A stretch of DNA of 64,000 nt from Verrucomicrobiota bacterium (GCA_037127585.1 JBAXYB010000002.1:3701-67700), one strand, 5' to 3'; shown: positions 34,437-55,337, counted from the stretch's first letter. Made by a program: numbers and translations. Notes: generated from the sequence alone by a model not told the origin.

Positions 34437-34503
34437 TGTGGGAGCGGCCTCAGTGCCGCGACCGACAACTCAACATCTGTCGCGGCGCTGAGGCCGCTCC
34501 CAC
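34437..34503. repeat. palindromic REP/MITE-like element, family 2 (TGTGGGAGCGGCC ... GGCCGCTCCCAC), copy 1
   Basis: ~23-nt arms that are near-perfect reverse complements around a 20-nt loop, between convergent rsmB and the LTXXQ gene. Shares termini with the copies at 46230 and 54406. Confidence 0.7.
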
Positions 34504-34568
34504 GTTCTTAAAATAGAACGGCTCTCGTCCGTTGCCGAACGAGAGCCGCCTGGAAGGATCAACGTCAA

Positions 34569-37891: not shown

Positions 37892-37902
37892 TTTGATTCC
37901 CT

Positions 37903-37962
37903 GCGCTGTGCAGAAGCGCAGCTACAACGGCTCTTGGTGTAGCGGCGCTTCTGTGAAGCGCC
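37903..37962. repeat. palindromic element family 1: two hairpin units (GCGCTGTGCAGAAGCGC-AGCTACAAC and GTGTAGC-GGCGCTTCTGTGAAGCGCC) facing each other
   Basis: Read from the sequence; related to the units at 45611-45686 and 55311-55337. Lies 12 nt upstream of the exonuclease start and just downstream of the 37971 gene stop. Confidence 0.65.
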
Positions 37963-37970
37963 GTTCGATG

Positions 37971-38984
37971 TCATGCGGCAATCCTTGGCAACCCCAGCGT
38001 CCGCATCGTGTGCAAACCCGCCCGCGCTTCCATCAAGAGCGGCAAAGAATTCACCAGCAAGGCCGGCGTCGCAATGTCACCGGGCGTCCCGCCGTCGAGC
38101 ACGAGTTTCATCGGCGGATCGCCGGCAATCTCGATTTGGTCGCGCGGATTCTCTGCGCCGGCATACATCTGCAACTCCAACCGCAAAACTTCCTTACCCT
38201 TCAACGCGCCGACCGCGACCTGACGCACGCCGGCCACTTGACCGGGCGCCGCCGTGAAATATTTCGTCTTGATTGGCTTAACGGCGAGGACAGGTCCGAT
38301 GCTCTCGTCCACTTTTTCCAACTTCCAACCCAACGCATCCGCCAAAAACACCAACGACTCCGTCAACCCGACATGCCGGATCTTCTTGTCGCTCGCGAGC
38401 TTCGTAAATTCCGCCTCGCTGATGCCGACGCCGACCTTGCGCTGCAACGCCTCGCGTCGCGTCGCGGCATCCACCACGCGGGTGACATGAATCGTGTCGA
38501 TCTTCCGGCACGCTCCTGTCAACGCCAACGCCAGCGTGTCCATCACAAAGCCAGGATTCACGCCGGTGCCGACCACTGCGCAACTTTTCTTGACGCACAT
38601 GTCGTCGAGTTCGCCGGCCAAAACGGGATTCCGGTATTTCGGAAACATCGCCTCTTCGCAGGACGTCACGCAATGCAGCCCGGCTCGCACGATCTCGACC
38701 AGTTGCGGGTACACATCCGCAAAACTCGACCCGGTACAATGAATCACCGCATCTGCCTGCGTCTGCCCGAACAACACCACCGCCTTGTCCGTGACCTTGA
38801 AGCCGAGTTGTCGGCCAATGCCCAGCACATCGCCGAAATCGCGCCCGACCGCCTGCGGATTCAGATCAACCGCGCCGACCAGTTGCATGTTGGATTTTTG
38901 GAGGACCAGTTCCGCCGCCGCGCGACCAATCGCTCCCAGCCCATACGAGATAACACGAATAGGTTTGCTCATCGTGTCCGCCAT
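37971..38984 (-). CDS. DapB-like NAD(P)-binding oxidoreductase (dihydrodipicolinate reductase / amine dehydrogenase family)
   Basis: ORF 37971..39056. N-terminal Rossmann IRVISYGLGAIGRAAAEL. Start placed at an internal Met (38984 or 38972). Confidence 0.55.
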   Translation of the reverse strand: MADTMSKPIRVISYGLGAIGRAAAELVLQKSNMQLVGAVDLNPQAVGRDFGDVLGIGRQLGFKVTDKAVVLFGQTQADAVIHCTGSSFADVYPQLVEIVRAGLHCVTSCEEAMFPKYRNPVLAGELDDMCVKKSCAVVGTGVNPGFVMDTLALALTGACRKIDTIHVTRVVDAATRREALQRKVGVGISEAEFTKLASDKKIRHVGLTESLVFLADALGWKLEKVDESIGPVLAVKPIKTKYFTAAPGQVAGVRQVAVGALKGKEVLRLELQMYAGAENPRDQIEIAGDPPMKLVLDGGTPGDIATPALLVNSLPLLMEARAGLHTMRTLGLPRIAA

Positions 38985-40138
38985 ATTAACACAGCGCCTG
39001 CGGCAAAGAGAACTGTTGAGTAACCAAACGCCACCGCCGGCGAGCACGTCGTCCACAACACGCCCACCACGATGCTCGACAGAAAATCGCCGACGCCGTT
39101 CACCGTCGCCAACACGCCGAATCCCATCCCGTGATGTTCCTTGTCCACCAACTCCGCCGCGAGCGAATCCTCCACCGCCTCCTCCGTCGCCACAAAGATG
39201 CCGGCGAGCACAAACACGAGCACCAGCACCGGCAAGTTCATCGGCGCAAACACCAACACCAACCCGGTCACTGCCGCCAGCCCATACCCACCGGCCAGCA
39301 GCGCGCGCTTATTCATATGATCCGCCAGCCATCCGGCCACAAACGCAAAACCGGCATAGAGCACGTTATGTAGCACGTACAACGCAACCGCGATGCTCGC
39401 CGCCTTGGCCTGACCGTATTGCGGCGTCAGCTTCTGCGTTGCGAGCAGGATTAACATTGAGTGTGCAAAGTCACCGGCCCCAAACAAACCCACCGCCAGC
39501 AAAAACCGCTGAAACGATTTCGGCAACGCCGCCAACCGGGCCCGAAACGAAATGTACTTCACGTGAACCCGGTCCTGTTCCTTCACCAACAACGCAATCG
39601 CCGCTGCCGCCAGCAATCCCGGGATGAGTGTCACCAACAACACCCGCGAGAAATTATTGTGGAACGCCACCAACAACAGCGTCGCCGTAATCGGCCCGAC
39701 GATCGCCCCGCACGTATCCATCATCCGCTCAAACCCAAACGCGCGTCCGTACGTCTCCGGTGTGACCGCCGCCGCCAACAACGCCTTGCGCACCGGCGTC
39801 CGCACCCCGCGCCCAAGCCACGCCCCTGCGCGACACAACAAAATGTGCCAAGCCTGCGTCGCCAACCCGATGCACGCCGTGCCGGTCGCCGTCACGAGGT
39901 AGCCGACCACCGCAATGGGTTTCCGCCGTCGCATCTGATCGGTGTAATACCCCGACCCCATCTTCGCAAAACTCGCCAACCCATCCGACACCCCTTCGAT
40001 GATCCCGAGCCACGCCGCCGCCGCCCCCATCGTCGCCAGAAACGCCGGCATCACCGCCGTTGCAATTTCGTGTGACCAATCACTCAACAATGATGCCAGC
40101 CCGATACCCAGCACCGTCCGATTAAGCCAACGCGCCAT
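38969..40138 (-). CDS. MFS transporter
   Basis: 389 aa, 12 predicted TM segments, MFS-like loop motif between TM2 and TM3. Confidence 0.8.
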   Translation of the reverse strand: MARWLNRTVLGIGLASLLSDWSHEIATAVMPAFLATMGAAAAWLGIIEGVSDGLASFAKMGSGYYTDQMRRRKPIAVVGYLVTATGTACIGLATQAWHILLCRAGAWLGRGVRTPVRKALLAAAVTPETYGRAFGFERMMDTCGAIVGPITATLLLVAFHNNFSRVLLVTLIPGLLAAAAIALLVKEQDRVHVKYISFRARLAALPKSFQRFLLAVGLFGAGDFAHSMLILLATQKLTPQYGQAKAASIAVALYVLHNVLYAGFAFVAGWLADHMNKRALLAGGYGLAAVTGLVLVFAPMNLPVLVLVFVLAGIFVATEEAVEDSLAAELVDKEHHGMGFGVLATVNGVGDFLSSIVVGVLWTTCSPAVAFGYSTVLFAAGAVLIWRTR

Positions 40139-40213
40139 ACCGGCGTCGTAACAGAATCGCCTCTGCCTGTCACGGTTGTTTACCGGAAACAGTTTTGTTA
40201 TCGTGCCGGCGCT

Positions 40214-41155
40214 TTGAGGAAGCTCATCATTATTATCGTGCTGGCCTTAATTGCTGTTGCGGCGTGGTGGCTGTCGCGTCGCAACGGGGTCGCCACGACG
40301 GTTTCCGGCACGATCGAAACCGACGAAGTCCACGTCGCCTCCCGCTACGGCGGCCGGGTCATCAAACTCCACGCGCAAGAAGGCGACGCTCTCAAAGCCG
40401 GCCAGCCTATCGCCGAACTCGACGCCACCGAACTCACCTCCCAGCGCGATTACGCCGCCGCCGTTCTTGCCGAGCTCGAACACGGCCCGCGTACCAACGA
40501 GATCGCCGCCGCAAAACACACGTGGGAATCTCTTACCGCGCAACTGACTTCGACGCGCGCCGATGCTGACCGCGCCCGGCAATTATTCGCCAGCAAGACT
40601 ATCTCCGAATCCGAAATGCAGAACACCGTCAGCAAAGCTGACGCGTTGGCACAAAGTGCGGATGCGGCCCGCAAGCAATTCGAACTCCTCGCCGAAGGCA
40701 CGCGCCCCGAACGCATCGACCAAGCCCGCGCGCAGTTGGCGACGATCGAAGCCCAACTCCGCGAAATGCGAATCGTCGCGCCGAGTGATTGTGTGCTCGA
40801 AGTCCTCAGCGTCAAAGTCGGCGACGTCTTACCGGCAAATCGTGAAGTGGCGACGCTGTTGCTGACTCAACATCTCTGGGTGCGCGTGTTCGTACCGGAA
40901 ACGTGGCTCGGATTGATCCAAGTCGGCCAGACACCCAAAGTGCGGACCGACTCCACGCCCGACCGGGAATTCACCGGCACCGTCGAACAGATCAACCGGC
41001 AGGCCGAGTTCACACCACGCAATGTCCAAACCGTTGAGGACCGCATCCGGCAAGTCTTCGGCGTCAAAGTCCGGCTACCCACCGATACCGGCCTGTTGCG
41101 CGCCGGTATGTCGGTGGATGTTTTGTTCCCCAACGTCCCGCCGCCGCCCCGGTAA
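40214..41155 (+). CDS. HlyD-family membrane fusion / secretion protein
   Basis: 313 aa. N-terminal TM, coiled coil, HlyD barrel motifs. Precedes the ABC-2 ATPase and permease. Confidence 0.8.
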   Translation: MRKLIIIIVLALIAVAAWWLSRRNGVATTVSGTIETDEVHVASRYGGRVIKLHAQEGDALKAGQPIAELDATELTSQRDYAAAVLAELEHGPRTNEIAAAKHTWESLTAQLTSTRADADRARQLFASKTISESEMQNTVSKADALAQSADAARKQFELLAEGTRPERIDQARAQLATIEAQLREMRIVAPSDCVLEVLSVKVGDVLPANREVATLLLTQHLWVRVFVPETWLGLIQVGQTPKVRTDSTPDREFTGTVEQINRQAEFTPRNVQTVEDRIRQVFGVKVRLPTDTGLLRAGMSVDVLFPNVPPPPR

Positions 41156-41159
41156 GCCG

Positions 41160-42107
41160 ATGATCGAGTGCGCCAATCTGACGAAGAAGTTTGGCGATTT
41201 CACGGCGGTCGACAACGTGAGTTTTCGTGTCGAGAAACAATCTATCTTCGGCTTCCTCGGCCCGAACGGCTCCGGCAAGACGACGGTTATCCGGATGCTC
41301 TGCGGCATTCTCGAACCGACCAGCGGTGACGCGCGCATCGGCGGCGTGGATGTGGTGCGCGACACGGAACGCGTCAAGGGCAGCATTGGTTACATGTCGC
41401 AGAAGTTCTCGCTCTACGATGAGTTGACGGTGAATGAGAATCTTTTGTTCTACGCGCAACTCTACGGGCTGCGCGGGACGGTGGCGAAGCAACGCCGGGA
41501 TGAACTCGTCGCGCTCACACATCTCGAACCTTATCTCGACCGGCGCGCGGCGTTGTTGTCCGGCGGCTGGCGGCAACGATTGGCGATGGCGTGCGCGTTG
41601 GTGCACAAGCCGAGTGTGTTGTTTCTGGATGAGCCGACCGCCGGTATCGATCCGGTGGCGCGCCGGGAGTTGTGGGATTTGCTCTTCGAGCTTTCCAGTA
41701 ACGGCATGACGCTATTTGTGACGACGCACTATATGGACGAGGCGGAACGCTGTTCGCATGTCGGCTATATCTTCATGTCGAAGCTCATCATCTGCGGCGA
41801 GCCGGATGATCTGAAACAGTTGGCGGACGTCAATCCGCCCGGCACGCGTCGGCTCGACGTGACGTGCGATCATGTGACCGTCGGGTTGCAGGCGGTGCGG
41901 AAACTGGCCGGCGTGCAAGCGGCGACCGTGTTTGGGCAGTCGATGCATCTGCTGGTGGATGAATCGCTGCCGGAGGCGAGTTTGCGGGAGACGTTGGTGA
42001 AAGTGAATGTTCACGCGACGGACATCCGGCCGATTGCGCCGTCGTTGGAAGATGTGTTCGTGGCGTTGACGTCCAAGCATTCCAACAACAACGGAGGTGC
42101 CGCATGA
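41160..42107 (+). CDS. ABC transporter ATP-binding protein (ABC-2 type)
   Basis: ORF 41022..42107. Start at Met47 (MIECANLTKKFGDF). Walker A GPNGSGKTT, signature LSGGWRQRL, Walker B LFLDEPT. Confidence 0.85.
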   Translation: MIECANLTKKFGDFTAVDNVSFRVEKQSIFGFLGPNGSGKTTVIRMLCGILEPTSGDARIGGVDVVRDTERVKGSIGYMSQKFSLYDELTVNENLLFYAQLYGLRGTVAKQRRDELVALTHLEPYLDRRAALLSGGWRQRLAMACALVHKPSVLFLDEPTAGIDPVARRELWDLLFELSSNGMTLFVTTHYMDEAERCSHVGYIFMSKLIICGEPDDLKQLADVNPPGTRRLDVTCDHVTVGLQAVRKLAGVQAATVFGQSMHLLVDESLPEASLRETLVKVNVHATDIRPIAPSLEDVFVALTSKHSNNNGGAA

Positions 42108-43222
42108 ATCCGTTCCGTGGCTTTCGCGCGATTCTCTACAAAGAGTTCAAGGTCATCTTTCGCGACCGTGGGACGCTGTTCTTCATGTTCTTCCCGCCGC
42201 TGCTGCAGATCATCGCGTTTGGCTTCGTGCTCGACAACGACGTGAAACACATGGCGATGGCGGTGTTCAACGAAGACCGCACCGTCGAAAGCCGGCAACT
42301 CATCGATGCGTTCGTCAACACGCAGACGTTTCGCGTCGTAGCCGAAGTGAACAGTCAGGCGGAGTTGGAAGAAATGGTGCGGCGCGGTAAAGCCTACGTG
42401 GGCCTGCAGATCCCGCCCGACTTCACCCGCAAACTCCACGCCAATCAGAAAACCACGTTGCAAGTGCTCATCGATGGCTCGAACTCGACGACGGCATTGC
42501 AGGCGCTCAACACCGCTCTCGGTATTGCAATGCGTAAATCGATCGATGTGTTGTTGGGACAGACTGGCCGGCGTGAACTACCCATCGAGATGCGCCCACA
42601 GGTTCTTTACAACCCGGCCATGCGTGCCCCGAACTTCTTCGTGCCCGGCGTCATCGGTACGGCGTTGCAGATTGCGACCGTGTTCGCAGTGGCAATGGCC
42701 ATCGTGCGCGAACGGGAACGCGGCACGTTGGAGAATCTCATGGTCAGCCCCCTCAGCCGGTGGGGCTTGATGCTCGGCAAGCTCGTACCGTACGTCTGCG
42801 TGTCGATGACAATGGCACTGTTCCTCTTCACGATTCTCCGCTGGGTGTTTCTCGTCCCGATTCAGGGCAGCTTGGTGATGCTCTTTATGGCGGCGCTGCT
42901 GTACGTTTTCGCGCTCGCGTGTCTTGGGTTGCTCATATCGACGAAAGCAAAATCGCAGAACGAAGCGATGCAGATGAGCATGACGATCATGTTGCCGTCG
43001 ATTTTCTTCAGCGGCTTTATCTTCCCGCGTGAAACGATGCCGGCAATCTTCTATTGGCTCAGCACGCTCTTGCCGGCGACGTACTTCATTGAGTTGATGC
43101 GCGCGATCATTCTGCGCGGCGCGACTTTCTTCGAGTTCTGGCGGCACCTCTTGATTCTCGCGGTGATGGGCGTGGTCCTCTTCGCCCTGTGCGCCCTGCG
43201 TTTTAAGAAGAAGTTGGCGTAG
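42104..43222 (+). CDS. ABC-2 type transporter permease
   Basis: 372 aa polytopic membrane protein. 4-nt overlap with the ATPase gene. Confidence 0.8.
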   Translation: MNPFRGFRAILYKEFKVIFRDRGTLFFMFFPPLLQIIAFGFVLDNDVKHMAMAVFNEDRTVESRQLIDAFVNTQTFRVVAEVNSQAELEEMVRRGKAYVGLQIPPDFTRKLHANQKTTLQVLIDGSNSTTALQALNTALGIAMRKSIDVLLGQTGRRELPIEMRPQVLYNPAMRAPNFFVPGVIGTALQIATVFAVAMAIVRERERGTLENLMVSPLSRWGLMLGKLVPYVCVSMTMALFLFTILRWVFLVPIQGSLVMLFMAALLYVFALACLGLLISTKAKSQNEAMQMSMTIMLPSIFFSGFIFPRETMPAIFYWLSTLLPATYFIELMRAIILRGATFFEFWRHLLILAVMGVVLFALCALRFKKKLA

Positions 43223-44657
43223 TATGCTTCTCGATGTACGCCTTCACCGTGCGCCGGTCGAGGTTCGTACGCCGGGCGACTTCCTCGTACGTGGCGTGCC
43301 GCTCGTGCAAGAGTTTGCAGTACCCGGCCAGCAACGCATCCGCATCGAGCGAACCATCGACTATCCCTGCTTGTAATCGGCCGGTCAGGTTAGGCGCAAT
43401 GGCGCGGGGGTCGCCGGTGTATTGCCGGGTCAGCAGGATGCGCCGGACGGCTTGCTCCAATTCACGGACGTTGCCGGGCCACGCATATTTTGCCGGTAGG
43501 GCTTCGCGCAGTAATGCGATAATCTCCGGCGCCACCTGCCCGGTCAGTCGGCGCACGATCAGACGGAGGAGATCGTCGAGTTCAGCGGGCTCTTCCCGGA
43601 TGCGTTGCCGAAGCGGCGGGACGGTGATGACGTCGGAACACAGCCGGTAAAAGAAGTCGTCACGGAATTGACCGGCGCCGCGCAATTTCTCGATAGGTTT
43701 GTTCGTCGCGCCAATCACCCGGCCCCGAAACCGCAGTTTCTCGTGGCTGCCGACCGGCGCGAACGTCCGTTCCTGGAGCACGTGCAGCAGTTTGATTTGA
43801 ACTGGGACACTCACGTCGCCGATTTCGTCGAGGAAGATCGCGCCGTACGGGCTGCACCGGGCGAACACGCCGTCGTGGTCGGCAATCGCGCCGGTAAAAG
43901 CGCCCTTGCGATGGCCGAATAGCTCTGACTCAATCAGCGTTTCCGGGAATTGCGACAGGTTCAGCGCAAGGAATGTCTTGGTGAAACTCTCAGCAAAACA
44001 GCCGCGTTTCTCGTCGAAGGGGATGAACCCCGACCGGCCGATGGCCGCCGCGGCCGCGCCTTTGCCGGTGCCGGTCTCGCCGAGCAGTAGTGTCGAGAAA
44101 TCTTCCATCCGGTTCCAGAGATGCCGCTCGTAGAGGCGGATATCGTGGGTGAAGACGTTGTTCCAGAGATGCCGGCGGAGTTCCTTCATGCACTCGCTAT
44201 GGCCGACCAGGCCGTGGTGGATAAAGTAGAACGCGCGGCGGACTTGGAAGATGACGGCGAAATACCGGCGCGCTTCGTCCGCCGTGAAACCGCGGCGCGT
44301 AAACAACGTCAGCGCCTTCTTCGCGAACGGTACCGGGACCGAGCGATCGCCGGCCGCGATCTGGTCGGCAATGAGTTGGTCGAAGGCGCTGAGATACCGG
44401 TGGTAGATTTCGTAGAGACACGCCGACCGGAGAATCTCGCGGTCCGCGTCGTCGACCTGCTTGAAGTTGGTGAGACCGGCGGCGTGGAGTTTGTGGAGTT
44501 CTTCATTCCAACGCTCGACCGGTGACACATCCTTGCCGCCGATAATCTGAAGCTGCAACTGATCGAACTCATCGCTGAAGGGATTACAAGCCGCCGCCCG
44601 GGTGACGAGGATGAGGAACTCGCGTTGGGCAGCCGGGAGGAGTTTTACGCTAGCCAT
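43203..44657 (-). CDS. sigma-54-dependent transcriptional activator (AAA+ NtrC-family central domain, C-terminal HTH; N-terminal sensory domain unassigned)
   Basis: 484 aa. Walker A GETGTGKG, GAFTGA sigma-54 contact motif, Walker B IFLDEIGD. Confidence 0.8.
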   Translation of the reverse strand: MASVKLLPAAQREFLILVTRAAACNPFSDEFDQLQLQIIGGKDVSPVERWNEELHKLHAAGLTNFKQVDDADREILRSACLYEIYHRYLSAFDQLIADQIAAGDRSVPVPFAKKALTLFTRRGFTADEARRYFAVIFQVRRAFYFIHHGLVGHSECMKELRRHLWNNVFTHDIRLYERHLWNRMEDFSTLLLGETGTGKGAAAAAIGRSGFIPFDEKRGCFAESFTKTFLALNLSQFPETLIESELFGHRKGAFTGAIADHDGVFARCSPYGAIFLDEIGDVSVPVQIKLLHVLQERTFAPVGSHEKLRFRGRVIGATNKPIEKLRGAGQFRDDFFYRLCSDVITVPPLRQRIREEPAELDDLLRLIVRRLTGQVAPEIIALLREALPAKYAWPGNVRELEQAVRRILLTRQYTGDPRAIAPNLTGRLQAGIVDGSLDADALLAGYCKLLHERHATYEEVARRTNLDRRTVKAYIEKHTTPTSS

Positions 44658-44680
44658 ACATTATTTGTAGCATGGCTAGT
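44641..44680. promoter_or_regulatory. 8-bp inverted repeat CTAGCCAT-N14-ATGGCTAG in the divergent region between the sigma-54 activator and the membrane-protein/rSAM cluster
   Basis: Read directly from the sequence; it overlaps the activator start codon region. Confidence 0.3.
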
Positions 44681-44784
44681 CATTTACTGTCCATCACTGG
44701 GATCGCACCTGACCGGAACTCGTGCAAATTCACCATTTCCGACACTGGCACGGCGGCAGCGTAAGGGTTTGAGTGGAGAACATC

Positions 44785-45270
44785 ATGAAGAGGCAAAATC
44801 CAATCAACCCGTTTGACCTCCTTGCGTTGGTCCTTGCCGGTGCGATGATTGAATGCCGAAGCCGGCCAGCGTGGGCGGTATTGATCGCGGTGTCCGCGCT
44901 AGCGGTCGGGCTGGGCACGTTCAGCTTCGCGACGGCCATCACGCAATTTGGCGGATTGTCCGGTATCGCCTGCGCGGCCATTGGATACATAGCACTACTA
45001 TGTATCAGGCAATCCGGCGCTGGCCGGTACGTGATGCTGGGCGCGCTGCTCCTGCTGGCCGGCAAGATCCTCTGGGAATGCGCCACTCACCGCGCACTCT
45101 TTGTCGCCAGCGATAGCCGGTTAGTCGTCTTCCCACTCGCCCATGCCATTGGGCTGGCCAGTGCATTTGGGCTTTGGCTTGGGACCAGCACTTTTCAACA
45201 ACGTCGGCGCATCCATCAAACCGAAAGGCGCGATCGTTCCGTGGCAACGACCGTCACAGTTATCCCATGA
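44785..45270 (+). CDS. small polytopic membrane protein, rhomboid-like (GxSG and AHxxG motifs), rhombosortase-like candidate
   Basis: ORF 44773..45270. FGGLSGIACAAIGY and PLAHAIGLASAFGL resemble rhomboid TM4 Ser and TM6 His motifs. Short (~161 aa). Confidence 0.4.
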   Translation: MKRQNPINPFDLLALVLAGAMIECRSRPAWAVLIAVSALAVGLGTFSFATAITQFGGLSGIACAAIGYIALLCIRQSGAGRYVMLGALLLLAGKILWECATHRALFVASDSRLVVFPLAHAIGLASAFGLWLGTSTFQQRRRIHQTERRDRSVATTVTVIP

Positions 45271-45695
45271 ACGCGACCCCGGTAACACTGAACTGGTTTG
45301 TCGGCTGGTGGTTGATCCTGGCCGGCTTTGCCAGTGGTGCGGTGATTGGATTGTTCTTTCACCAGGAAAAATTTCTCGGCGGGTACGGCTCGTTTCGGCG
45401 GCGGCTGTTGCGGCTGGGCCACATCGCGTGCGCAGCGTTGGGGATGTTGAACTTGATAGTCGCCGTGGCGCCGGTGATGTCGCCGTTGCTGGCGGTTGGC
45501 GGGGTCTTGATGCCGACGGTTTGTTTTCTGACGGCGTGGAAGGCGCAATGCCGGCACTTGTTTGCGATACCGGTGCTGGCGTTGGTGGCAGGAGTGGTGG
45601 TGGTGATGTGGTGTAGTGGCGCTTCTGTGAAGCGCCCCGTCGTGGCGGGACAACTGCCCGCGCTTCACAGAAGCGCGGCTACAACCGGAGATTGA
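45267..45695 (+). CDS. small membrane protein (4 TM); C-terminal ~30 aa encoded by a palindromic repeat element
   Basis: ORF 45174..45695. Start at Met32. The C-terminus VVVVMWCSGASVKRPVVAGQLPALHRSAATTGD is the translation of the family-1 repeat. Confidence 0.4.
   Translation: MNATPVTLNWFVGWWLILAGFASGAVIGLFFHQEKFLGGYGSFRRRLLRLGHIACAALGMLNLIVAVAPVMSPLLAVGGVLMPTVCFLTAWKAQCRHLFAIPVLALVAGVVVVMWCSGASVKRPVVAGQLPALHRSAATTGD
45611..45686. repeat. palindromic element family 1: GTGTAGT-GGCGCTTCTGTGAAGCGCC ... CGCGCTTCACAGAAGCGC-GGCTACAACC (two hairpin units in opposite orientation, 22-nt spacer)
   Basis: The two 17-nt cores are perfect reverse complements and are each self-complementary (GCGCTTC-TGT-GAAGCGC). 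Confidence 0.7.
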
Positions 45696-45697
45696 CG

Positions 45698-47119
45698 ATG
45701 AAAATTGGTTTTTTGGCGATGAGCGGGATCCGGGCGCATGACCCGGAATTGTTGAAACTCGGATTGACGTTGCCGGGGTTTGTCGAGCGCAGCAAGGCGA
45801 TTGCGTCGCTGCCAAGTCTGGGGTTGCTCTATCTCGCGGCGGTGACGCCGGCCGGACACGAACTCGAATACTTCGAGGCCGAGGCGGACGGGAAGGAGTC
45901 GGTCGCGCTGTACGATTGCGATCTCGTGGCGATCAGCACGTTCTCGGCGCAGGTGTTCGAAGCGTACGCGATTGCGGATCGGCTCCGGCTGGCCGGCGTG
46001 AAGGTGGCGTTGGGCGGGTTGCATGTGACGGCGTTGCCGGCCGAGGCGTTCGCGCACGCGGACTATGTGGTGACCGGCGAAGGCGAGAACGTGTGGCCGG
46101 AAGTTGTGCGATCCGCGGAACGTGACGCGCCGCCGCGGACGTTCGCAGCGCAAATGTATCCGGCGGTCGATGTGACGCGCTTGCCGGTGCCGCGCTATGA
46201 TTTGTTGGGCGTCCGAACAGGAGAATCGATGTGGGAGCGGCGTCATTCCCCTCAGCCGGTTGCGGCGGGGACGCCGCTCCCACAACAACCGCCCGCTATC
46301 CGGTACAACCGGTTCACAGTGCAAACGACGCGCGGGTGTCCGTGGCGGTGCGAGTTCTGCGCGTCGAACGTCATGCTCGGCCAGCCGTACCGGAAGCGGC
46401 CGGTGTGGGACGTGGTCCGCGACATCGGCACGATCCAGCAAGTGCGCGAACGTCCATTCATCGAGTTTGCCGATGACAATACGTTCGTCGATAAAACGTG
46501 GGGCAAGCAGTTGTGCCGGGCGCTCGCGCCGCTGCACTTGAAATGGTTTACCGAGACCGACATCTCGGTGGCTGAGGATGGGGAGTTGCTCGAGCTGATG
46601 CACGCGGCGGGTTGCCGGCAGATTCTGATTGGGCTGGAGAGTCCGAACGCGTCGCCGTTGCATGGACTGGAGATGAAGGCGGATTTCAAGGCGCGGTGGT
46701 TTACCCGCTACGCCAACGCCATCGAACGCATCCAGTCGCACGGCATCACGGTGAATGGTTGTTTCATCCTCGGCCTCGATGGTCACGACACCGGTATCTT
46801 CGAGCAGGTGCTCGACTTTGCCCGGCAAGTGTCGCTCTACGACGTGCAGATCACGGTGCTGACGGCGTTTCCCGGTACGCCGCTGTATGCACGACTGCTC
46901 CGGGAAGGCCGCGTGATCGAGCCGGGCCGGTGGGATTTGTGCACGCTCTTTGACGTGAATTACCGGCCGGTCGGGATGAGTGCGGACGAACTGCGCGCCG
47001 GCATGCGGTGGTTGACGGAGCGACTTTACAACGACGAATGCACGCAAGCACGGAGGGCGGGATTTTTATCTTCCTTTCGGCGGGCGACGGGAACAGAATT
47101 ACAGACGAAAGCCGCATGA
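45698..47119 (+). CDS. B12-binding domain radical SAM protein (class B rSAM)
   Basis: ORF 45692..47119 (TTG). ATG at 45698 gives MKIGFLAMSG. N-terminal cobalamin-binding domain, CPWRCEFC (CxxxCxxC) cluster motif. Carries a ~19-aa in-frame insertion derived from a palindromic element. Confidence 0.85.
   Translation: MKIGFLAMSGIRAHDPELLKLGLTLPGFVERSKAIASLPSLGLLYLAAVTPAGHELEYFEAEADGKESVALYDCDLVAISTFSAQVFEAYAIADRLRLAGVKVALGGLHVTALPAEAFAHADYVVTGEGENVWPEVVRSAERDAPPRTFAAQMYPAVDVTRLPVPRYDLLGVRTGESMWERRHSPQPVAAGTPLPQQPPAIRYNRFTVQTTRGCPWRCEFCASNVMLGQPYRKRPVWDVVRDIGTIQQVRERPFIEFADDNTFVDKTWGKQLCRALAPLHLKWFTETDISVAEDGELLELMHAAGCRQILIGLESPNASPLHGLEMKADFKARWFTRYANAIERIQSHGITVNGCFILGLDGHDTGIFEQVLDFARQVSLYDVQITVLTAFPGTPLYARLLREGRVIEPGRWDLCTLFDVNYRPVGMSADELRAGMRWLTERLYNDECTQARRAGFLSSFRRATGTELQTKAA
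46230..46284. repeat. palindromic element family 2 copy 2 (TGTGGGAGCGGCGTC ... GACGCCGCTCCCACA), located in frame inside the rSAM CDS
   Basis: 15-nt perfectly complementary arms plus a 26-nt loop. Translated as MWERRHSPQPVAAGTPLPQQ between the rSAM YDLL and TTRGCPWRCEFC motifs. Confidence 0.7.
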
Positions 47120-48402: not shown

Positions 48403-48968
48403 ACTGGCGCAAGAGTGTTTTGATTGTGGTGGCGGCCGGACAGTTGGCGATCCCGGCGTATCTGATTCACCGGCAGGAGACGACGTTGCGGGAGGGGCGG
48501 GCGTACAAGTTCAAGACGGCGCCGGTCGATCCGTACGACGCGTTTCGCGGCCGGTATGTGGCGTTGCGGTATGAACAAGACCACGCGCCATGGCCGGGGA
48601 CGAACCAAGTCCTGCGTCAGCAGCGAGCCTATGCGCGGGTTGAAGAGGGCGTGGACGGGTTCGCCTTGGTGCGTGAAGTCACGCCGCGGCCGCCGGTGAC
48701 AGGGGATTTCTTCAAGGTCCAGGCGAATTACGCGGGCTGGGGCACGAATGCCGGGACGGTCTACTTCACAATGCCGTTTGACCGGTATTATATGGAGGAG
48801 ACGAAAGCTCCGAAAGCCGAGCAAGTTTACAGGGCCAACAACCGGCGCGGTCAGACCAATCAGAACACGTATGCCGTCGTGCGCATCCGGCAGGGCCACG
48901 CGGCGCTGGAAAATCTCTTCGTTGCCGGCCAACCGATCACCGAGATGTTGCGCGAGAAGCAACCGTAG
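48392..48968 (+). CDS. membrane-anchored GDYXXLXY-family-like protein
   Basis: ATG at 48392 within ORF 47967..48968. N-terminal TM then a soluble domain containing a degenerate GDFFKVQANY motif. Overlaps the upstream gene's end. This family typically partners DUF2157 proteins. Confidence 0.45.
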
Positions 48969-49034
48969 TTTTTTTGGCATTTGACGGTGGGGGGTGGGGT
49001 CGGTATTCTCGGCCACTTTCTTAAGGAATTTCTT

Positions 49035-50690
49035 ATGTTTATTGCTCATGGCGAAAAAGTTCGGAAACACGCGCGGTGGATCATGTTTGGCGTGCTGGTG
49101 CTGTTGATCCCCGGGTTCGTGGCGTTATTCACGACCACGGGCAGCAAGTCGGACCGGCAGGCGGGCGATGTGCCGACCGTGCGCGGCAAGCCGGTGGTGG
49201 CGGCTGAGTTTGACCAGATGAAGGAATTGGTGCGCGCACAATACGTGGTGATGCGCGGCCGGGATCAGTCGCGGACGATGCAGATGCAGGATCAGATCAA
49301 GCAGGAAGCGGTCGTCCAGATGTTGATGCTGCAGAAAGCGAAGGAAATGGGCGTTGTGGTCAGCGAGCCGGAGTTGCAAGTCGCGCTCATGTCCCAGCCA
49401 GTCTTCCTCAACAGCGCCGGCCAGTTCGACCGGGAACGCCTCCGCCAGTTCATGATTCTGTTGAATAACAATGGCGTCAGCGAAGCGATGTTCGAAGAAG
49501 TGATGCGGCAACGGTTGTTGATTGAGAAATTGCAGGGGCTCATCACCGCCGCCGCCAAGGCCACGCCGGCCGCCGTCCAACAGGCGTACCTGCCATTGCA
49601 CGAAAAACTTTCGATCGATCTCGTGCAATTCGACATGGCCGACAACAAAGTTCCGATCACTGTTTCCAACGCCGAAGTCCGCGCGTTCTACGAGCAGAAC
49701 AAGGAATCGTTCCGCGTGCCGGCCAAAGTCAAAGTGCAGTATGCGGAGTTCACCGCGGCCGCCGCGAAGAAGACCGTTCAGTTGACCGAGGAGGAAATCG
49801 CGGAGTTCTACAACCGCAACAAATTCCGCTATGCCGGCACGAACAGCGTGCCGCAACCGCTCGATGCCGTGAAGGCGGAAGTGAATGCCGAACTGCTCAC
49901 CCTGCGCGCCGACCGCGCCGCCGCCGACCGGGCCACGGAGTTTGGCGTGAAACTGTCGCAGTCACCCAAACCGGAGTTCGCCAAAGTTTGCGCCGAGTTC
50001 GGCGTGACGCCGCTCACCACGGACTTCATCGCGGCCGTCGACAAAGTTCCCGGCGTGACGGACTTGCCGGATTTTGCGACAAAAGCGAATCGCCTCTCCG
50101 CCGACATGCCGGTCAGCGATCCGATTGGCGGGTCGAACACCTACTACATTCTCGAATTCGTGGCCGGCCAACCGAGCGCCGTCCCGCCATTCGAGCAAGT
50201 CGAAGCCGAAGTCACCAAGCAAGTCACGCAAATCCGCACGTACGGCGTGACCCTCGAACGCGCGGAGGCGACCATTGGCCAACTCAAGAAGTTGATCGCC
50301 GCCGGCAAGACCTTCGCGCAGGCCTGCGCCGAATTGAAACTCAAAATCGAAACGCCACCGGCGTTCACAGTCGCCGAAGAAAAACTAAAGTTGCCGGCGG
50401 CCGGCCAAATCCAACAGGCATCGCTTGAGATGCCGGTGAACGCGGTCAGCGAATTGATCGGCACCCCGACCGGTGGGCTGGTGTTCCACGTCCGCGAACG
50501 CCAACCGGCAGACTTGGCGGAGTTTGAGAAGGATCGCGAGCGCATCACCCGGCAAGTCTTGCAGCGCGACCGGCAAGCGTTGTTCAGCGATTGGATTCAG
50601 GCGCTCGTCCACGGTGAGCAAGTGGACTTCAAAATCCCGCGCCGCCAGCCGGAAGCCGAAGAAGTTACGGCTACCGAGTCGACGAACTAA
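49035..50690 (+). CDS. periplasmic chaperone PpiD-like protein (SurA N-terminal-like domain plus inactive/atypical parvulin region), N-terminal membrane anchor
   Basis: ORF 48981..50690. Start at Met19 gives an N-terminal TM (WIMFGVLVLLIPGFVALF). Overall PpiD-like architecture and length. Confidence 0.55.
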   Translation: MFIAHGEKVRKHARWIMFGVLVLLIPGFVALFTTTGSKSDRQAGDVPTVRGKPVVAAEFDQMKELVRAQYVVMRGRDQSRTMQMQDQIKQEAVVQMLMLQKAKEMGVVVSEPELQVALMSQPVFLNSAGQFDRERLRQFMILLNNNGVSEAMFEEVMRQRLLIEKLQGLITAAAKATPAAVQQAYLPLHEKLSIDLVQFDMADNKVPITVSNAEVRAFYEQNKESFRVPAKVKVQYAEFTAAAAKKTVQLTEEEIAEFYNRNKFRYAGTNSVPQPLDAVKAEVNAELLTLRADRAAADRATEFGVKLSQSPKPEFAKVCAEFGVTPLTTDFIAAVDKVPGVTDLPDFATKANRLSADMPVSDPIGGSNTYYILEFVAGQPSAVPPFEQVEAEVTKQVTQIRTYGVTLERAEATIGQLKKLIAAGKTFAQACAELKLKIETPPAFTVAEEKLKLPAAGQIQQASLEMPVNAVSELIGTPTGGLVFHVRERQPADLAEFEKDRERITRQVLQRDRQALFSDWIQALVHGEQVDFKIPRRQPEAEEVTATESTN

Positions 50691-51366
50691 CCAACGCGCG
50701 GAACAGCCGCCGGAACCGCGGCGCGACATGGATCAAGCGTTCGGGGTGAAATTGGACACCCCAAAAGAAACGCGCGGACTTGTGCTCGACCGCTTCGATC
50801 ACGCCATCCCCAGCTCGCGCGACGACGCGCAGTGGTCGCGCCACCGCATCAAGCGCCTGATGGTGCGACGTGTTGACCTTACCGGCGGCCGAACCGAGCA
50901 AGGTGCGCATCTGCGAATCAGCCGCCCACGTTATCGTCTGGCATAAAGCGTCGGGTTGTGGATTCCGGTGACCCGTGAGATCCGGTATCAGTGTGCCGCC
51001 GAGGGCGACGTTCATTACCTGAATCCCCCGGCAAATCCCCAAGACCGGCCAGTCGCGTTTCAGGGCGGCGCGGACCAGATAGATTTCCATTTCGTCGCGC
51101 TGTTCATCAACGCCGCTGATTTTCGCCGTTTGGCGAGGCGTGTAGAACTTGAAACTCACATCGCCACCACCGGCCAGCAGTAAGCCATCACAGTTTTTGA
51201 CGAAGTGGTTGAGGACGCTCCGGTCGTCGGTCAGCGGCAAGATCACCGGTATGCCGCCGGCCAGTTCGATGGCTTGCGAATACGAGATGCCGCAAAATGC
51301 GCCCCGGCCATCCTGCCGGGACGGCAAGCGAATCGCTTCGGGAGTGACCGCAATAACCGGCTTCAT
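50671..51366 (-). CDS. class I glutamine amidotransferase-like hydrolase (peptidase C26 / PuuD gamma-glutamyl-GABA hydrolase family)
   Basis: ORF 50671..51438. Start at Met25. Catalytic GICRG and HH..D region (VQFHPE). Confidence 0.75.
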   Translation of the reverse strand: MKPVIAVTPEAIRLPSRQDGRGAFCGISYSQAIELAGGIPVILPLTDDRSVLNHFVKNCDGLLLAGGGDVSFKFYTPRQTAKISGVDEQRDEMEIYLVRAALKRDWPVLGICRGIQVMNVALGGTLIPDLTGHRNPQPDALCQTITWAADSQMRTLLGSAAGKVNTSHHQALDAVARPLRVVARAGDGVIEAVEHKSARFFWGVQFHPERLIHVAPRFRRLFRALVSSSTR

Positions 51367-52211
51367 TCGCCTCGGGCGAGCAGGACCGGCACGCGGGCTT
51401 TGCGGAGAATGTGCGTCGTCGTCGAGCCGAGAATCCATTCCCGGATCCGGGTATGACCGTAGGCGCCCATCACGATCAAGTCCGCCGCGACTTCCATGGC
51501 GACTTGGAGAATCGCTTGTTCGGGATCGAGGTGGAGTAGTTGGGCGTGCGTTTTGAGGCCCCGCGCCAAGGCGAGTTCGCGGGCTTGGTTGAGAATGTTG
51601 GCCGAGCTTACTTCCTGCTCATGCGGGCCGGCGGTCACGATCGTCACGGCGGCTTCGAGCGCGACCGCGAGATTGAGTCCGCGATGCAGCGCCTTGGTGG
51701 ATTCGTCGCTGCCGTCGTGGGCGATTAACACGTTCCGTGTTTCCCGAAAAGTTTCCGGCGCGATCAAACACGGTTTCTTGGAAGCGCGCACCATGCGCTC
51801 GACGCTGGCCCCGAGCATGTCGCCGTGCCACTGGGCATGTTCGCCGCGTTGCCCGAGCACGACCAGATCGGCGCGCGGCTCGTACTCCAACAACGTATGC
51901 ACCAGACTGCCGGTCGCGTGGGCGACTTCGCACGCGACACCGTTATCGTGACAAAGCTGCGCCGCGGCGGCTAAAATCGTTTGGGCGCGGGTCGTCTGAA
52001 TCTCACGCACTTGGGACAGCAGCGCTGAGTACGGTTGGGCGCCGAGCGCGCCCGAGAGATCGGCGAGCCACGGACCTTCGAGCAGGCGGATATCCGTGAC
52101 ATGCAGCGCCAGGATGCGCGAGTGAAGTTTCTGCGCGAGCCAGACCGCGTGCCGGGCGGCACCATCGGCTCCCGGTGAGCCATCAATCCCTAAGAGAATA
52201 TTCTTAAACAT
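51363..52211 (-). CDS. universal stress protein, tandem USP domains
   Basis: ORF 51363..52349. Start at Met47 (MFKNILLGIDGS). Two UspA domains each with the G-x2-G-x9-G(S/T) ATP motif. Confidence 0.75.
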   Translation of the reverse strand: MFKNILLGIDGSPGADGAARHAVWLAQKLHSRILALHVTDIRLLEGPWLADLSGALGAQPYSALLSQVREIQTTRAQTILAAAAQLCHDNGVACEVAHATGSLVHTLLEYEPRADLVVLGQRGEHAQWHGDMLGASVERMVRASKKPCLIAPETFRETRNVLIAHDGSDESTKALHRGLNLAVALEAAVTIVTAGPHEQEVSSANILNQARELALARGLKTHAQLLHLDPEQAILQVAMEVAADLIVMGAYGHTRIREWILGSTTTHILRKARVPVLLARGE

Positions 52212-52351
52212 ACCAACTCCTTTCGTTTGACCTTCCCACGCAACATACGCCAAGCCACCACCCCCGGCCAGTGCAATGAATGACACAGTACAAAGCGCAC
52301 CGGGTAGTGATTCGGATTGCGAGGCGGCACACCTTCCGGTATAAGCCACGC

Positions 52352-53188
52352 ATGACTTCCCGCAGTATCGCGTTCGCGAACCAAAAAGGGGGCGTCGGCA
52401 AAACCACCACGGCAGTTAGCATGGCTGCGTGTCTCGCCGAACGCGGACAGCGCACGTTGCTCATCGACTTGGATCCACAGGCGAACGCCACCAGCGCCCT
52501 CGGCCTGGAGAAACTTACCGGCGGGAGTATCTATCAAGCGTTGCTGGGGCCGGCCGCGCTTGCGGATTCGATTCGTCCCAGCGGCATTGAACATCTCGAC
52601 GTCATTCCCAGCGAAGTTGATTTGGCTGTGGCCGAAGTGGATGTCGCGCGCACCGAAAACTACCTTCAGCGACTGCGCACCGCCGTGAACCCAATCCGGG
52701 CCCTGAACCGGTACGACTTTATTCTCATCGACTGCCCACCGTCGCTCGGCATCCTGACCATGAACGCCTTGGCGGCCGTTGACCGCGTGATTGTGCCTAT
52801 TCAATGCGAATACTTCGCGCTCGAAGGGTTGGCGGTCATCATGCGCGTCATCGGCCAGATCAAGACGAGCGGCGCGAATCCCGAACTCGACATCCTCGGC
52901 GTGATCATGACGATGTACGATGGCCGGACGAATCTGGCGCAGCAAGTGGTTGGCGAAGTCCGCCGGCATCTGGGCGATAAAGTTTTTAAGACGCTCGTGC
53001 CGCGCACGGTCCGGTTGGCCGAAGCGCCCAGTTTCGGCAAACCGATCAACATCTATGATTCCGGCTCGTATGCGGCCGCGGTTTACCGGTCGTTGACGGA
53101 AGAATTGTTAGCGCGGAATGCGCCCCCGGCAGCCGCGCCGGTCGTCCCCCCAATAAAAAAAGCGGACGTTAAGCCCAGTTTGAAGTAG
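52352..53188 (+). CDS. parA: ParA/Soj-family partition ATPase (no parB follows)
   Basis: ORF 52280..53188. Start at Met25. Deviant Walker A KGGVGKTT. Ala/Pro-rich C-terminal tail. Confidence 0.85.
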   Translation: MTSRSIAFANQKGGVGKTTTAVSMAACLAERGQRTLLIDLDPQANATSALGLEKLTGGSIYQALLGPAALADSIRPSGIEHLDVIPSEVDLAVAEVDVARTENYLQRLRTAVNPIRALNRYDFILIDCPPSLGILTMNALAAVDRVIVPIQCEYFALEGLAVIMRVIGQIKTSGANPELDILGVIMTMYDGRTNLAQQVVGEVRRHLGDKVFKTLVPRTVRLAEAPSFGKPINIYDSGSYAAAVYRSLTEELLARNAPPAAAPVVPPIKKADVKPSLK

Positions 53189-53197
53189 GCGGGAAAC

Positions 53198-53218
53198 TGG
53201 TGCAGCCGGAGGATTCGA
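53198..53218. repeat. degenerate direct repeat of the tRNA-Arg 3' end (TGGTGCAGCCGGAGGATTCGA vs TGGTGCGGCCGGCGGGAGTCGA at 54235-54255): putative attR-like remnant
   Basis: 17 of 22 positions identical to the tRNA 3' end in the same orientation, ~1.04 kb away; the intervening DNA is low-GC. Confidence 0.45.
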
Positions 53219-53435
53219 CGCAGTCTCAACACGGCGAACAGAGACGTGGCCTCGGACCGCCCCTAAAAAACCCGGAGGGAGATTCTCACCACCGCCCCTC
53301 GTCGCCGCCCGCAGCAAGGAAACCCGCCGGACACCTACCGGACTGCGTAAATCATCGGCAGTACCGCCTTGCTGTGCACCCGCAACCGGTTCTGGAGCAT
53401 TGCCAACGGACATAACCCGGCGTTAGCATAAAGCT

Positions 53436-54044
53436 ATGAGCGCATCCAATCGCCAGAAGAAGATCCTCGCTTTTTTCAAAGTTCCTTTTTCTCCAAAAAT
53501 TTCCGTCGGTGCCGCAGGGTGGGAGATTGCCGAACTAATGGAGGACGACGCATGTCGCGAACGATGGCGTCGCTACCTTTATCTGACAAAAGACTTTGGT
53601 TCCACCTCCGACCAATTGATTCCGGTCAGTGAGAAAGAAATTGAGGCAGTAACTATTCCTGAGGGGTGGAGTTCTTCGGAGGCAATCAAAGAATTTCAGA
53701 GTGAGGTAGTCGCTCAAGAGCTAGTTGACCACTCGCCATTTGACCAGCCGCAGCCGGTTGTTGAGTTTCCGCACCGTAGTTTCATTTTCACAGGCAAATT
53801 CGCTTTTGGTTCCCGTAATGCTTGCCAAGCAGCTGTGATTGAACGCGGCGCGTTCGCGCCAGACCAGAAATCCATAACGCACGAAATTAACTATCTAGTT
53901 ATCGGCGCGGAGGGAAGCAAGGCGTGGAAGCGCGGTTCATACGGCAACAAGATTGAGGCAGCAATTCTGGCTCGCCGTGAATACGGCTCGCCTGCGATTA
54001 TTTCCGAGAAGCATTGGACCGCATCTCTAACAAGAACATCCTAA
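53436..54044 (+). CDS. BRCT-domain protein (C-terminal BRCT, N-terminal domain unknown), low-GC gene
   Basis: 202 aa. C-terminal FIFTGKFAFGSRNACQAAVIERGAFAPDQKSITHEINYLVIGAEGSKAWKRG ... AIISEKHW aligns with the LigA-type BRCT pattern. By eye ~48-50 % GC. Confidence 0.6.
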   Translation: MSASNRQKKILAFFKVPFSPKISVGAAGWEIAELMEDDACRERWRRYLYLTKDFGSTSDQLIPVSEKEIEAVTIPEGWSSSEAIKEFQSEVVAQELVDHSPFDQPQPVVEFPHRSFIFTGKFAFGSRNACQAAVIERGAFAPDQKSITHEINYLVIGAEGSKAWKRGSYGNKIEAAILARREYGSPAIISEKHWTASLTRTS

Positions 54045-54234
54045 GCCAGCCTCCACCACCGGCACCCTGAGCCGCCGGCCCGGGGCTTGAGCAAGCCACC
54101 ACTGGGGCGATAATCCCGGGCGCAGGACTTTGGGTGATAACTTGGGTGATAACTCGGTTTTTGCGCATTTGGGGAGCGTCGCGACTGCTTGGGCGCAGTT
54201 CGCACAAGTTGCTTACTGGCAGGACTAAATCGAG

Positions 54235-54311
54235 TGGTGCGGCCGGCGGGAGTCGAACCCACAACCTTTGCCTTCGGAGGGCAACGCTCTATCCAGTTGA
54301 GCTACGGCCGC
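54235..54311 (-). tRNA. tRNA-Arg (anticodon CCG), 77 nt, with encoded CCA
   Basis: Minus-strand sequence GCGGCCGTAGCTCAACTGGATAGAGCGTTGCCCTCCGAAGGCAAAGGTTGTGGGTTCGACTCCCGCCGGCCGCACCA folds as a cloverleaf (7-bp acceptor, D, anticodon stem TTGCC/GGCAA with loop CTCCGAA, T-arm GTGGG/CCCGC). Confidence 0.9.
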
Positions 54312-54405
54312 ACTTGTCAAACGCGGCGCACTCTAGCGGCGCCCGCGCCGCTGTTCAACCTCGAAAAAAGTGCGGCAAGTTTGGGGCGCTACTGGACGCT
54401 GTTAC

Positions 54406-54477
54406 TGTGGGAGCGCCCTTCCGGGCGCGATTTGCTCGAATGACCAACCCGGTCGCGCCCGGAAGGGCGCTCCCACA
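54406..54477. repeat. palindromic element family 2 copy 3 (TGTGGGAGCGCCCTTCCGGGCGCGA ... TCGCGCCCGGAAGGGCGCTCCCACA)
   Basis: 25-nt perfectly complementary arms and a 22-nt loop, between tRNA-Arg and rph. Confidence 0.7.
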
Positions 54478-54578
54478 ACTGGCCAGCCGGATTTTGATGG
54501 TGGTGTCAAAAGGCCCAAGCTAGGGATCGACCCAGAAATAACTTGCCGCTACTCGGCGCGCCGGTCATCCTTCGCGCC

Positions 54579-55301
54579 ATGAAACGTTTTGATGGTCGCT
54601 TGGTGGATCAACTGCGGACACTGAAAATCCAGCCGAATTATCTCGCCACGCCGGCCGGCTCGGTGCTCATCGAAATGGGGAAGACACGCGTCATCTGCGC
54701 CGCGTCGATCGAGGACGGGGTGCCGCGGTGGATGAAGGAACAGAAGGTCGTCGGCGGGTGGGTGACGGCGGAGTATTCGATGTTGCCCTATTCGACTTCG
54801 CCCCGGAAATCCCGGGAAGTCGCCAAGGGCAAGGTCGAGGGGCGGACGCAGGAGATTCAGCGGCTCATCGGCCGGTCCATACGGGCGGTGACGGATATGA
54901 CGAAGCTCGGGGAGCGAACGGTGTGGGTCGATTGCGATGTGCTCGAAGCCGATGGCGGGACGCGGACGGCGTCGATTACCGGGGCGTATGTGGCGATGCA
55001 GTTGGCGATGCAGAAGTTGATGGCGCTGAGTTTGGTGAAGGAGAATCCGGTCACGGCGGCGGTGGCGGCGGTGAGCGTGGGAGTGATCGAGGGGACGCCG
55101 TTGTTGGATTTGAATTATGTCGAGGACGTGGCGGCGGCGGTGGACATGAATGTGGTGATGACGGATGCCGGGCGGTTTGTGGAGGTGCAGGGGACGGGCG
55201 AGGAGTCAACGTTCAGCCGGGAGGAGTTGAACGAATTGCTCCGGTTGGGCGAGCGCGGGATTCAGGAGTTGCTCGCGGCGCAGCAGCAGGCGCTGAAGTA
55301 A
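54579..55301 (+). CDS. rph: ribonuclease PH
   Basis: ORF 54543..55301. Start at MKRFDGR. RNase PH conserved motifs ([17 protein letters not shown] ... [18 protein letters not shown]). Confidence 0.9.
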
Positions 55302-55310
55302 AAACACCAT

Positions 55311-55337
55311 CGCGGCTCACAGAGCCGCGGCTACACC
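55311..55337. repeat. palindromic element family 1, single unit (CGCGGCTC-ACA-GAGCCGCG-GCTACACC); possible bidirectional terminator between convergent rph and trxA
   Basis: Same architecture as CGCGCTTC-ACA-GAAGCGCG-GCTACAACC at 45659-45686, with compensatory stem substitutions. On the minus strand the hairpin is followed by ATGGTGTTTTT. Confidence 0.55.

Follow-up and report, generated by a model that had tools for sequence, protein, structure and literature searches.

We found that a 64,000-nucleotide stretch of DNA from a Verrucomicrobiota bacterium (GCA_037127585.1 JBAXYB010000002.1:3701-67700, hereafter the window) carries five short hairpin units at three loci. These units are very probably repetitive extragenic palindromic (REP) elements of the GTAG superfamily, occurring singly and as inverted doublets termed REPINs (REP doublets forming hairpins), and represent non-autonomous DNA mobilised in trans by a REP-associated tyrosine transposase (RAYT). 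We directly observe the anatomy of the units, their spread, the structural covariation of their stems, their linkage to RAYT genes in other genomes and the in-frame insertion of one REPIN into a gene; we infer that a RAYT mobilises the copies of the window. We call these units family 1. Coordinates are positions in the window and L-numbers designate loci from other genomes. The units are:

37902-37928, minus strand: REP unit, degenerate family 1, GTTGTAGC-TGCGCTTCTGCACAGCGCA, also written GTTGTAGC-TGCGCTTC-TGCAC-AGCGCA
37936-37963, plus strand: REP unit, intact family 1 with a 9-bp stem, GGTGTAGC-GGCGCTTC-TGT-GAAGCGCC-G
45610-45686, plus strand: complete REPIN, composed of units 45610-45636 and 45658-45686
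45610-45636, plus strand: REPIN unit 1, GGTGTAGT-GGCGCTTC-TGT-GAAGCGCC
45658-45686, minus strand: REPIN unit 2, GTTGTAGC-CGCGCTTC-TGT-GAAGCGCG, reading CCGCGCTTC-ACA-GAAGCGCGG-CTACAACC on the plus strand
55311-55337, minus strand: single REP unit of the compensated stem sub-type, GGTGTAGC-CGCGGCTC-TGT-GAGCCGCG

An earlier note on this DNA, made from the sequence alone, had described five hairpins sharing a GGCTACA "tail", and all five were located where it placed them. The tail is the reverse complement of TGTAGCC, so that each unit consists of a GTAG tetranucleotide followed by a G+C-rich hairpin of 8-9 bp, with the general form gkTGTAG-yn-GCGCTTC-TGT-GAAGCGC. Three of the five cores match this form exactly. 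The core at 37903-37919 is degenerate, with three mismatches that result in a shorter stem and a larger loop while the GTAG is kept. The core at 55312-55328 carries two stem changes (GCGGCTC/GAGCCGC vs GCGCTTC/GAAGCGC), both fully compensated, as the note had noticed. Its description of the two pairs also holds: the copies at 45611 and 45659 are opposite in orientation, with cores (45619-45635 and 45660-45676) that are exact reverse complements, and the copies at 37903 and 37937 face each other. We find that the GTAG ends of the latter pair point inward. The spacer of the 45610-45686 REPIN, measured between both 23-nt core matches, is 24 nt long (45636-45659).

The degenerate core GCGSYTCACAGARSCGC matches the window four times for 0.37 expected matches, and none of 100 shuffled sequences reached four. 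The 9-nt tail by itself is weak evidence, with an enrichment of about twofold at one mismatch. Across the whole window, only the five unit sites have a hairpin whose perfect stem is 6 bp or longer and which lies no more than 8 nt from GTAG or CTAC, and all five have the form of a GTAG-type REP, that is, a stem of 6-9 bp with GTAG at one end. Folded as DNA, the single units have energies of -9 to -11 kcal/mol and the doublet 37901-37963 an energy of -21 kcal/mol (z -4.0). The doublet 45610-45686 (folded as 45608-45690) forms one long hairpin, with energies of -32.2 kcal/mol (z -7.8) for DNA and -54.8 kcal/mol (z -7.1) for RNA. Scanning the whole window against Rfam at gathering thresholds gave no match at the repeats, a tRNA at 54238-54311 being the sole match.

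To place these units among other genomes, the pattern GTAGNNGCGCTTCTGTGAAGCGC was scanned in one genome per species (species-representative assemblies). Among the matches listed, the exact 23-mer is present in at least 112 stretches from at least 35 assemblies, for a chance expectation of about 0.3 matches in the whole collection by our own arithmetic. Nearly all of these assemblies are labelled Verrucomicrobia, Verrucomicrobiia or Chthoniobacterales; the other labels among the matches listed are one Kiritimatiellales and single bins of Planctomycetota and a betaproteobacterium. In related genomes the matches listed amount to at least 10-16 separate loci per genome, and the window has 5 units in 64 kb. 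Copies are therefore plentiful in other assemblies, contrary to the possibility, raised in the earlier note, that there would be none. By megablast of the window against the 112 loci we found no piece of the same genome, only matches of 73-78 % identity in L077 and L051.

We compiled a census of the 112 loci plus the window, accepting units with up to three mismatches (n = 192). Conservation in the census is limited to gkTGTAGyn-GCGCTTC-TGY-GAAGCGC and the flanks are random. The GTAG was required by the search and the census cannot test it; the conserved positions that were left unconstrained are the gkT before it and the y after it. The census contains 74 singlets and 54 inverted doublets with GTAG outward, the doublets being 60-110 nt long with spacers mostly of 15-30 nt. 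Only 4 pairs have GTAG inward as in the 37901-37963 pair, which is therefore of the rarer arrangement. The doublet spacers are mostly unrelated to one another; common spacers are found, for example, in L021, L083, L099 and L052 and between two copies in L040, while the spacer of the window REPIN is common, among doublets, only to the orthologous copy in L113. The stem variant seen at 55311 recurs in a doublet of L114.

The clearest evidence that pairing itself is maintained comes from the covariation of the stem-closing pair, which was free in the search pattern. Among 200 copies this pair is G-C in 132, C-G in 29, T-A in 25 and A-T in 2, making it Watson-Crick in 188, with 7 wobble and 5 unpaired. 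Changes within the stem divide into 18 double changes that keep pairing and 18 single changes that break it.

Several of the other genomes encode the likely transposase next to the repeat. Searching all locus DNA for the RAYT C-terminal signature motif identified 4 ORFs (open reading frames), and all three that were scanned (L015, L040 and L084) match Pfam Y1_Tnp. NCBIfam NF047646 (REP-associated tyrosine transposase; cut-off 80 bits) matches L040 at 107 bits and L084 at 108 bits, and the genes of both have MPDHIHLF as HUH motif and YVRQNPVRAGL as tyrosine motif. The RAYT gene of L040 lies between two nearly identical family-1 doublets and its TAG stop codon is provided by the GTAG of the downstream unit; that of L084 is likewise bracketed by family 1, with a further unit in frame within the gene. 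Altogether, family-1 units are found on both sides of the RAYT gene in five independent contigs from other genomes (L040, L084, L121, L122 and L169). The in-frame unit of L084 (6107-6129) and one in the RAYT gene of L015 (3554-3609) are of the transposase's own or a related family, and they lengthen the stretch from the HUH to the tyrosine motif by 10-20 residues.

The RAYTs of L040, L084 and L015 were aligned and used to scan metagenomes, from which 80 loci were kept, a set found independently of the GTAG-anchored search for family 1. GTAG- or GTGG-tagged hairpins lie within 350 nt at 78 of the 80. The RAYTs closest to L040 in this set, L121 (68 % identity) and L122 (71 %), are both flanked by family 1. 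At RAYTs further removed from L040 the flanking stems are different, among them GCGCTTG-TGC, GCCGCCG-TCC, ACCGGCC-TGT and TCGAGCC-TGT. Most of these RAYT-linked families again have the TGT loop; GTAG or GTGG was required by the search and is hence left unscored. Each RAYT clade thus has its own REP, as in classical systems.

We propose that a RAYT, which belongs to the HUH/Y1 enzymes of the IS200/IS605 superfamily, would recognise the hairpins in single-stranded form and move them in trans. The three loci of the window would then be separate insertions, into a co-directional gap, a tightly coupled gene junction and a convergent gap. All three are usual positions for REPs, the first two being unidirectional (the second in the last codons of a gene) and the third convergent. 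A number of points weigh against this explanation. No RAYT was found in the 64 kb by searching the six frames of the window for the C-terminal signature motif, and the family may be orphaned in this genome, of which the window makes only five units visible. Neither a transposition event, nor an empty/filled polymorphism within one population, nor a target-site rule was observed. Terminator-like sites in the region number 21 for 23.4 expected, with no overall enrichment. Finally, the translation of the tail described below, the terminator activity and the translational coupling are read from sequence alone.

It is conceivable that the hairpins are instead host regulatory elements, namely terminators or mRNA-stabilising stem-loops that were kept or evolved in place, and not mobile DNA. 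The hairpins are stable and are found at gene 3' ends and between convergent genes. The pair 37901-37963 separates two minus-strand genes: a diaminopentanoate-dehydrogenase-like gene, whose stop codon is 8 nt from unit 37936-37963, and an RNase-H-like gene, whose start codon has unit 37902-37928 10 nt upstream of it. The 55311-55337 unit occupies most of the 42-nt gap between two convergent genes:

54543-55301, plus strand: RNase PH gene rph, with its stop 9 nt before the 55311 hairpin
55344-55676, minus strand: thioredoxin gene trxA, convergent with rph, with its stop 6 nt beyond the REP unit

On the minus (trxA) strand the 55311 hairpin is followed by the tail ATGGTGTTTT, a T-run, and ranks first among the terminator-like sites. 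On the rph strand no T-run follows. The earlier note had seen this unit as standing in the place of a bidirectional rph/trxA terminator; a terminator-like structure is indeed present for trxA, whereas a bidirectional role is unsupported. A secondary regulatory role is possible for individual copies, and a secondary terminator role of 55311 for trxA is one such possibility.

We nevertheless consider it very unlikely that regulation accounts for the family. The presence of the 23-mer in at least 112 unrelated contexts and at least 35 species makes local evolution impossible; units are found inside coding sequence; orthologous sites are empty or occupied by other repeats, the rph/trxA junction of two related genomes having no such element; and the repeat flanks its own transposase gene. 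Terminators as a general explanation were rejected, given the lack of enrichment and the fact that the other four of the five window units have no T-run and do not qualify as intrinsic terminators.

Another explanation is that the doublets are miniature inverted-repeat transposable elements (MITEs) derived from a DDE-type insertion sequence, with terminal inverted repeats and target-site duplications. The length of the doublets and their inverted ends would agree with this. However, singlets are no rarer than doublets, comparison of a filled site with an empty one reveals no target-site duplication, and the sole consistently adjacent transposase is an HUH/Y1 enzyme, so that we regard a MITE origin as extremely improbable. 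It is hardly credible, finally, that a dimeric regulator uses the palindrome GCGCTTC-TGT-GAAGCGC as its double-stranded operator, with the loci as its regulon: the inverted repeat is perfect, of operator-like size and recurrent near genes, but the sites are downstream of or within genes and not at promoters, the closing pair covaries (G-C, C-G, T-A) as expected of pairing and not of base-specific contact, the GTAG is asymmetric and on one side only, the doublet spacers vary and the adjoining genes are functionally unrelated.

The REPIN of the window is inserted at the junction of two genes:

45267-45695, plus strand: small membrane protein gene, 142 aa, the last 27 residues absent from most orthologues
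45698-47119, plus strand: B12-binding radical-SAM gene, with 2 nt between the extended membrane-protein ORF and its start

The membrane protein is identical to one encoded in a Verrucomicrobiota metagenome-assembled genome, on a contig of 85,494 bp. Its close orthologues are mostly 109-112 residues long, and 84 of the 120 best orthologues have no C-terminal extension, ending in ...GGAK or similar soon after the last hydrophobic segment. The window protein continues past the orthologue end with CSGASVKRPVVAGQLPALHRSAATTGD. Residues 116-140 (CSGASVKRPVVAGQLPALHRSAATT) are encoded by the REPIN (45612-45686; tail peptide PVVAGQLPALHR), while the final GD and the stop are ancestral flanking sequence. 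The earlier note had this ORF reading through the 45611 copy to obtain its last ~30 aa. The read-through is borne out, though not of one unit but of both, with 25 of the 27 extra residues encoded by the doublet. Most of the orthologous proteins do not share this C-terminus; had they shared it without repeat homology, the note would have counted that against its reading. A conserved functional C-terminus was rejected, since most orthologues end about 27 residues earlier and others have unrelated repeat-coded tails.

In the DNA alignment with the empty-site orthologue L115, the insert falls after ...TTG and ahead of the GGAG box that precedes the radical-SAM start, the REPIN ending at the Shine-Dalgarno-like GGAG of this next gene. 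The overlapping ancestral stop (ATGA) has stayed in frame, and the filled site shows no target-site duplication relative to the empty one. On this alignment the REPIN reads as an in-frame insertion a few codons before the membrane-protein stop. The frame reads the GTAG as TGT-AGT (xGT-AGx) and thereby avoids the TAG stop, leaving the whole doublet translatable. The doublet would have landed in this frame and been translated as a basic tail that is probably tolerated and neutral. In orthologues the membrane-protein and radical-SAM genes overlap or abut. It might be that read-through was favoured by the translating ribosome melting the -55 kcal/mol RNA hairpin beside the ribosome-binding site of the radical-SAM gene.

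The gene order around this site (43203-47119) is conserved in L113 and L115-L118, with a divergent sigma-54 activator, small hypothetical genes, the small membrane protein and at least one B12-radical-SAM gene. Stops and starts overlap among the genes of the cluster in the window and in these loci.

The same position is occupied in other genomes, by more than one kind of element. Family-1 doublets are present there in three other orthologues, L113, L114 and L118. The L113 copy differs from that of the window at 7 of 91 positions, with flanks 71-84 % identical, and its GTAG has decayed to GCAG and its CTAC to CTCT. The spacer common to L113 and the window is found nowhere else among the doublets, and these two copies look like one old insertion inherited by both lineages. 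The L114 doublet has a first unit with the 55311-type stem variant and the L118 doublet a longer spacer. Tails such as GRDGPPGRP...ARPAVAPY are found in at least 15 further orthologues; in the DNA they correspond to another kind of GTAG doublet (GGTAGGGACGGACCGCCGGGCCGTCC ... GGCGCGCCCGGCGGTCGCGCCCTACC), located at the same position. About a quarter of the close orthologues have some such tail. All the inserts that we saw are stop-free and in frame, keeping the ORF open until a few nt before the next start codon.

Three of the orthologues, L114, L119 and L120, have flanks 88-94 % identical and three unrelated inserts. This combination indicates that the site was repeatedly colonised or its occupant exchanged, and the divergence in place of one ancestral repeat was rejected for these three. 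The inserts of L114 and L119 have GTAG and CTAC boundaries that agree to within 2 nt, and that of L120 is without GTAG. The latter (985-1070) consists of the palindromes GGACGCGC-GGAA-GCGCGTCC and GGCCACGC-TTCC-GCGTGGCC, preceded by CGTC, and may be a member of the CGTC-tagged class.

A bolder reading of these occupants treats the 3' end of the membrane-protein gene as a fixed "landing pad", on which a REPIN of one RAYT system is exchanged for that of another in the form of a cassette with GTAG and CTAC as its boundaries. We think this unlikely, but if true it would point to RAYT-mediated exchange at common GTAG sites combined with host selection on translated REPINs. A suggested reason for the inserts being in frame only is that translation through the hairpin would keep the B12-radical-SAM gene translationally coupled.

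A second case of one site with different REP families is seen in L051, where the gap orthologous to 37901-37963 (L051 1940-1990) has a different GTAG hairpin, GGCGTCTGCCC ... GGGCAGACGGC-CTACAAC.

The GTAG-tagged REP superfamily and its RAYTs were defined by Di Nocera, De Gregorio and Rocco (2013, BMC Genomics 14:522, PMC3733652), including GTAG-17 to GTAG-20 of Opitutus terrae. According to that study GTAG REPs favour unidirectional and convergent gaps near 3' ends, GTAG ends supply stop codons, in-frame intragenic dimers of 20-30 aa are most numerous in the verrucomicrobium Opitutus terrae, and different REPs occur at about the same site of Xanthomonas recB. The units described here resemble these elements in the 6-9 bp stem, the GTAG end, the compensated sub-families, the position in unidirectional and convergent gaps near gene 3' ends and the occurrence as singlets and as head-to-head or tail-to-tail dimers. 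They also share the GTAG-derived TAG stop (here in the L040 RAYT), the in-frame dimers and a site with varying REPs. The stem GCGCTTC/GAAGCGC is absent from the supplementary lists of that paper, the consensus sequences of its Figure 1 lying outside the comparison, and on the basis of those lists we file the present repeat as a further family of the known GTAG type. Unlike the families in the parts of that paper compared here, it is spread over at least 35 uncultured species and has one site with at least three different inserts between flanks 88-94 % identical.

The REPIN concept and the co-variation of REPs with RAYTs come from Bertels and Rainey (2011, PMC3116915) and Bertels et al. (2017, PMC5581495). 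As in the REPIN-RAYT systems of Pseudomonas and Enterobacteria covered there, we find an inverted REP pair with a spacer, a transposase flanked by its own REPINs, a REP sequence that tracks RAYT relatedness and old copies common to diverged genomes (the window and L113). The present family differs from the Pseudomonas REPINs of these papers in its phylum and in spacers that are far more variable between copies. Rickettsia palindromic elements (RPEs; Ogata et al. 2002, cited in PMC3733652) are likewise in-frame palindromes translated as an extra peptide but are longer and, as presented there, have no GTAG/RAYT system; the short RPE-4 and RPE-6 of Rickettsia conorii are placed by PMC3733652 in the CGTC class, with no dedicated transposase. 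The E. coli REPs and bacterial interspersed mosaic elements (BIMEs) with their TnpA-REP (Messing et al. 2012, PMC3479197) have a hairpin with a GTAG guide, a Y1 HUH enzyme and alternating orientations in common with the present units. E. coli REPs have, in contrast, bulged and longer stems; roles in gyrase or IHF binding and in mRNA stability are documented for them.

Taken together, this is a known kind of element with known behaviour, and the principles of REPs are unchanged. The site that seems to be fixed, re-occupied and always translated would be the one aspect going somewhat beyond the literature cited here, with partial precedent there and a mechanism that we can only infer. The earlier suggestion of a REP-like family intruding on coding sequence is thus supported in a more precise form, as GTAG-tagged REPs, mostly in REPIN doublets, with a cognate RAYT in related genomes. 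The uncultured Verrucomicrobiota of soil, peat and groundwater gain a defined REP/REPIN family with its transposase, and the evolution of REPINs becomes open to study outside Proteobacteria. In annotation the repeat makes spurious-looking protein tails and inserts, and knowing it will help gene models; it is also usable as a marker in assembly and binning. The recurrently occupied gene end is well suited as a natural test case for site choice or site exchange by these elements.

Coding intrusion is not special to family 1. A distinct hairpin family of the window, family 2, has an element at 46231-46285 (TGTGGGAGCGGCGTC ... GACGCCGCTCCCACA) that is in frame within the B12-radical-SAM gene, where it forms part of an additional segment some 30 residues long. 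The corresponding site is empty in L115, L113 and L117 and holds other inserts in L116 and L114. Two more family-2 elements, at 34435-34506 and 54406-54477, are long inverted repeats that start with TGTGGGAGCG and end with CGCTCCCACA. By analogy, the GTGG head of family 2 recalls the GTGG form of the GTAG tag that PMC3733652 reports in GTAG-20 of Opitutus terrae. About 95 nt separate the tRNA gene at 54238-54311 (minus strand; 70 bits in Rfam) from the family-2 element at 54406-54477.

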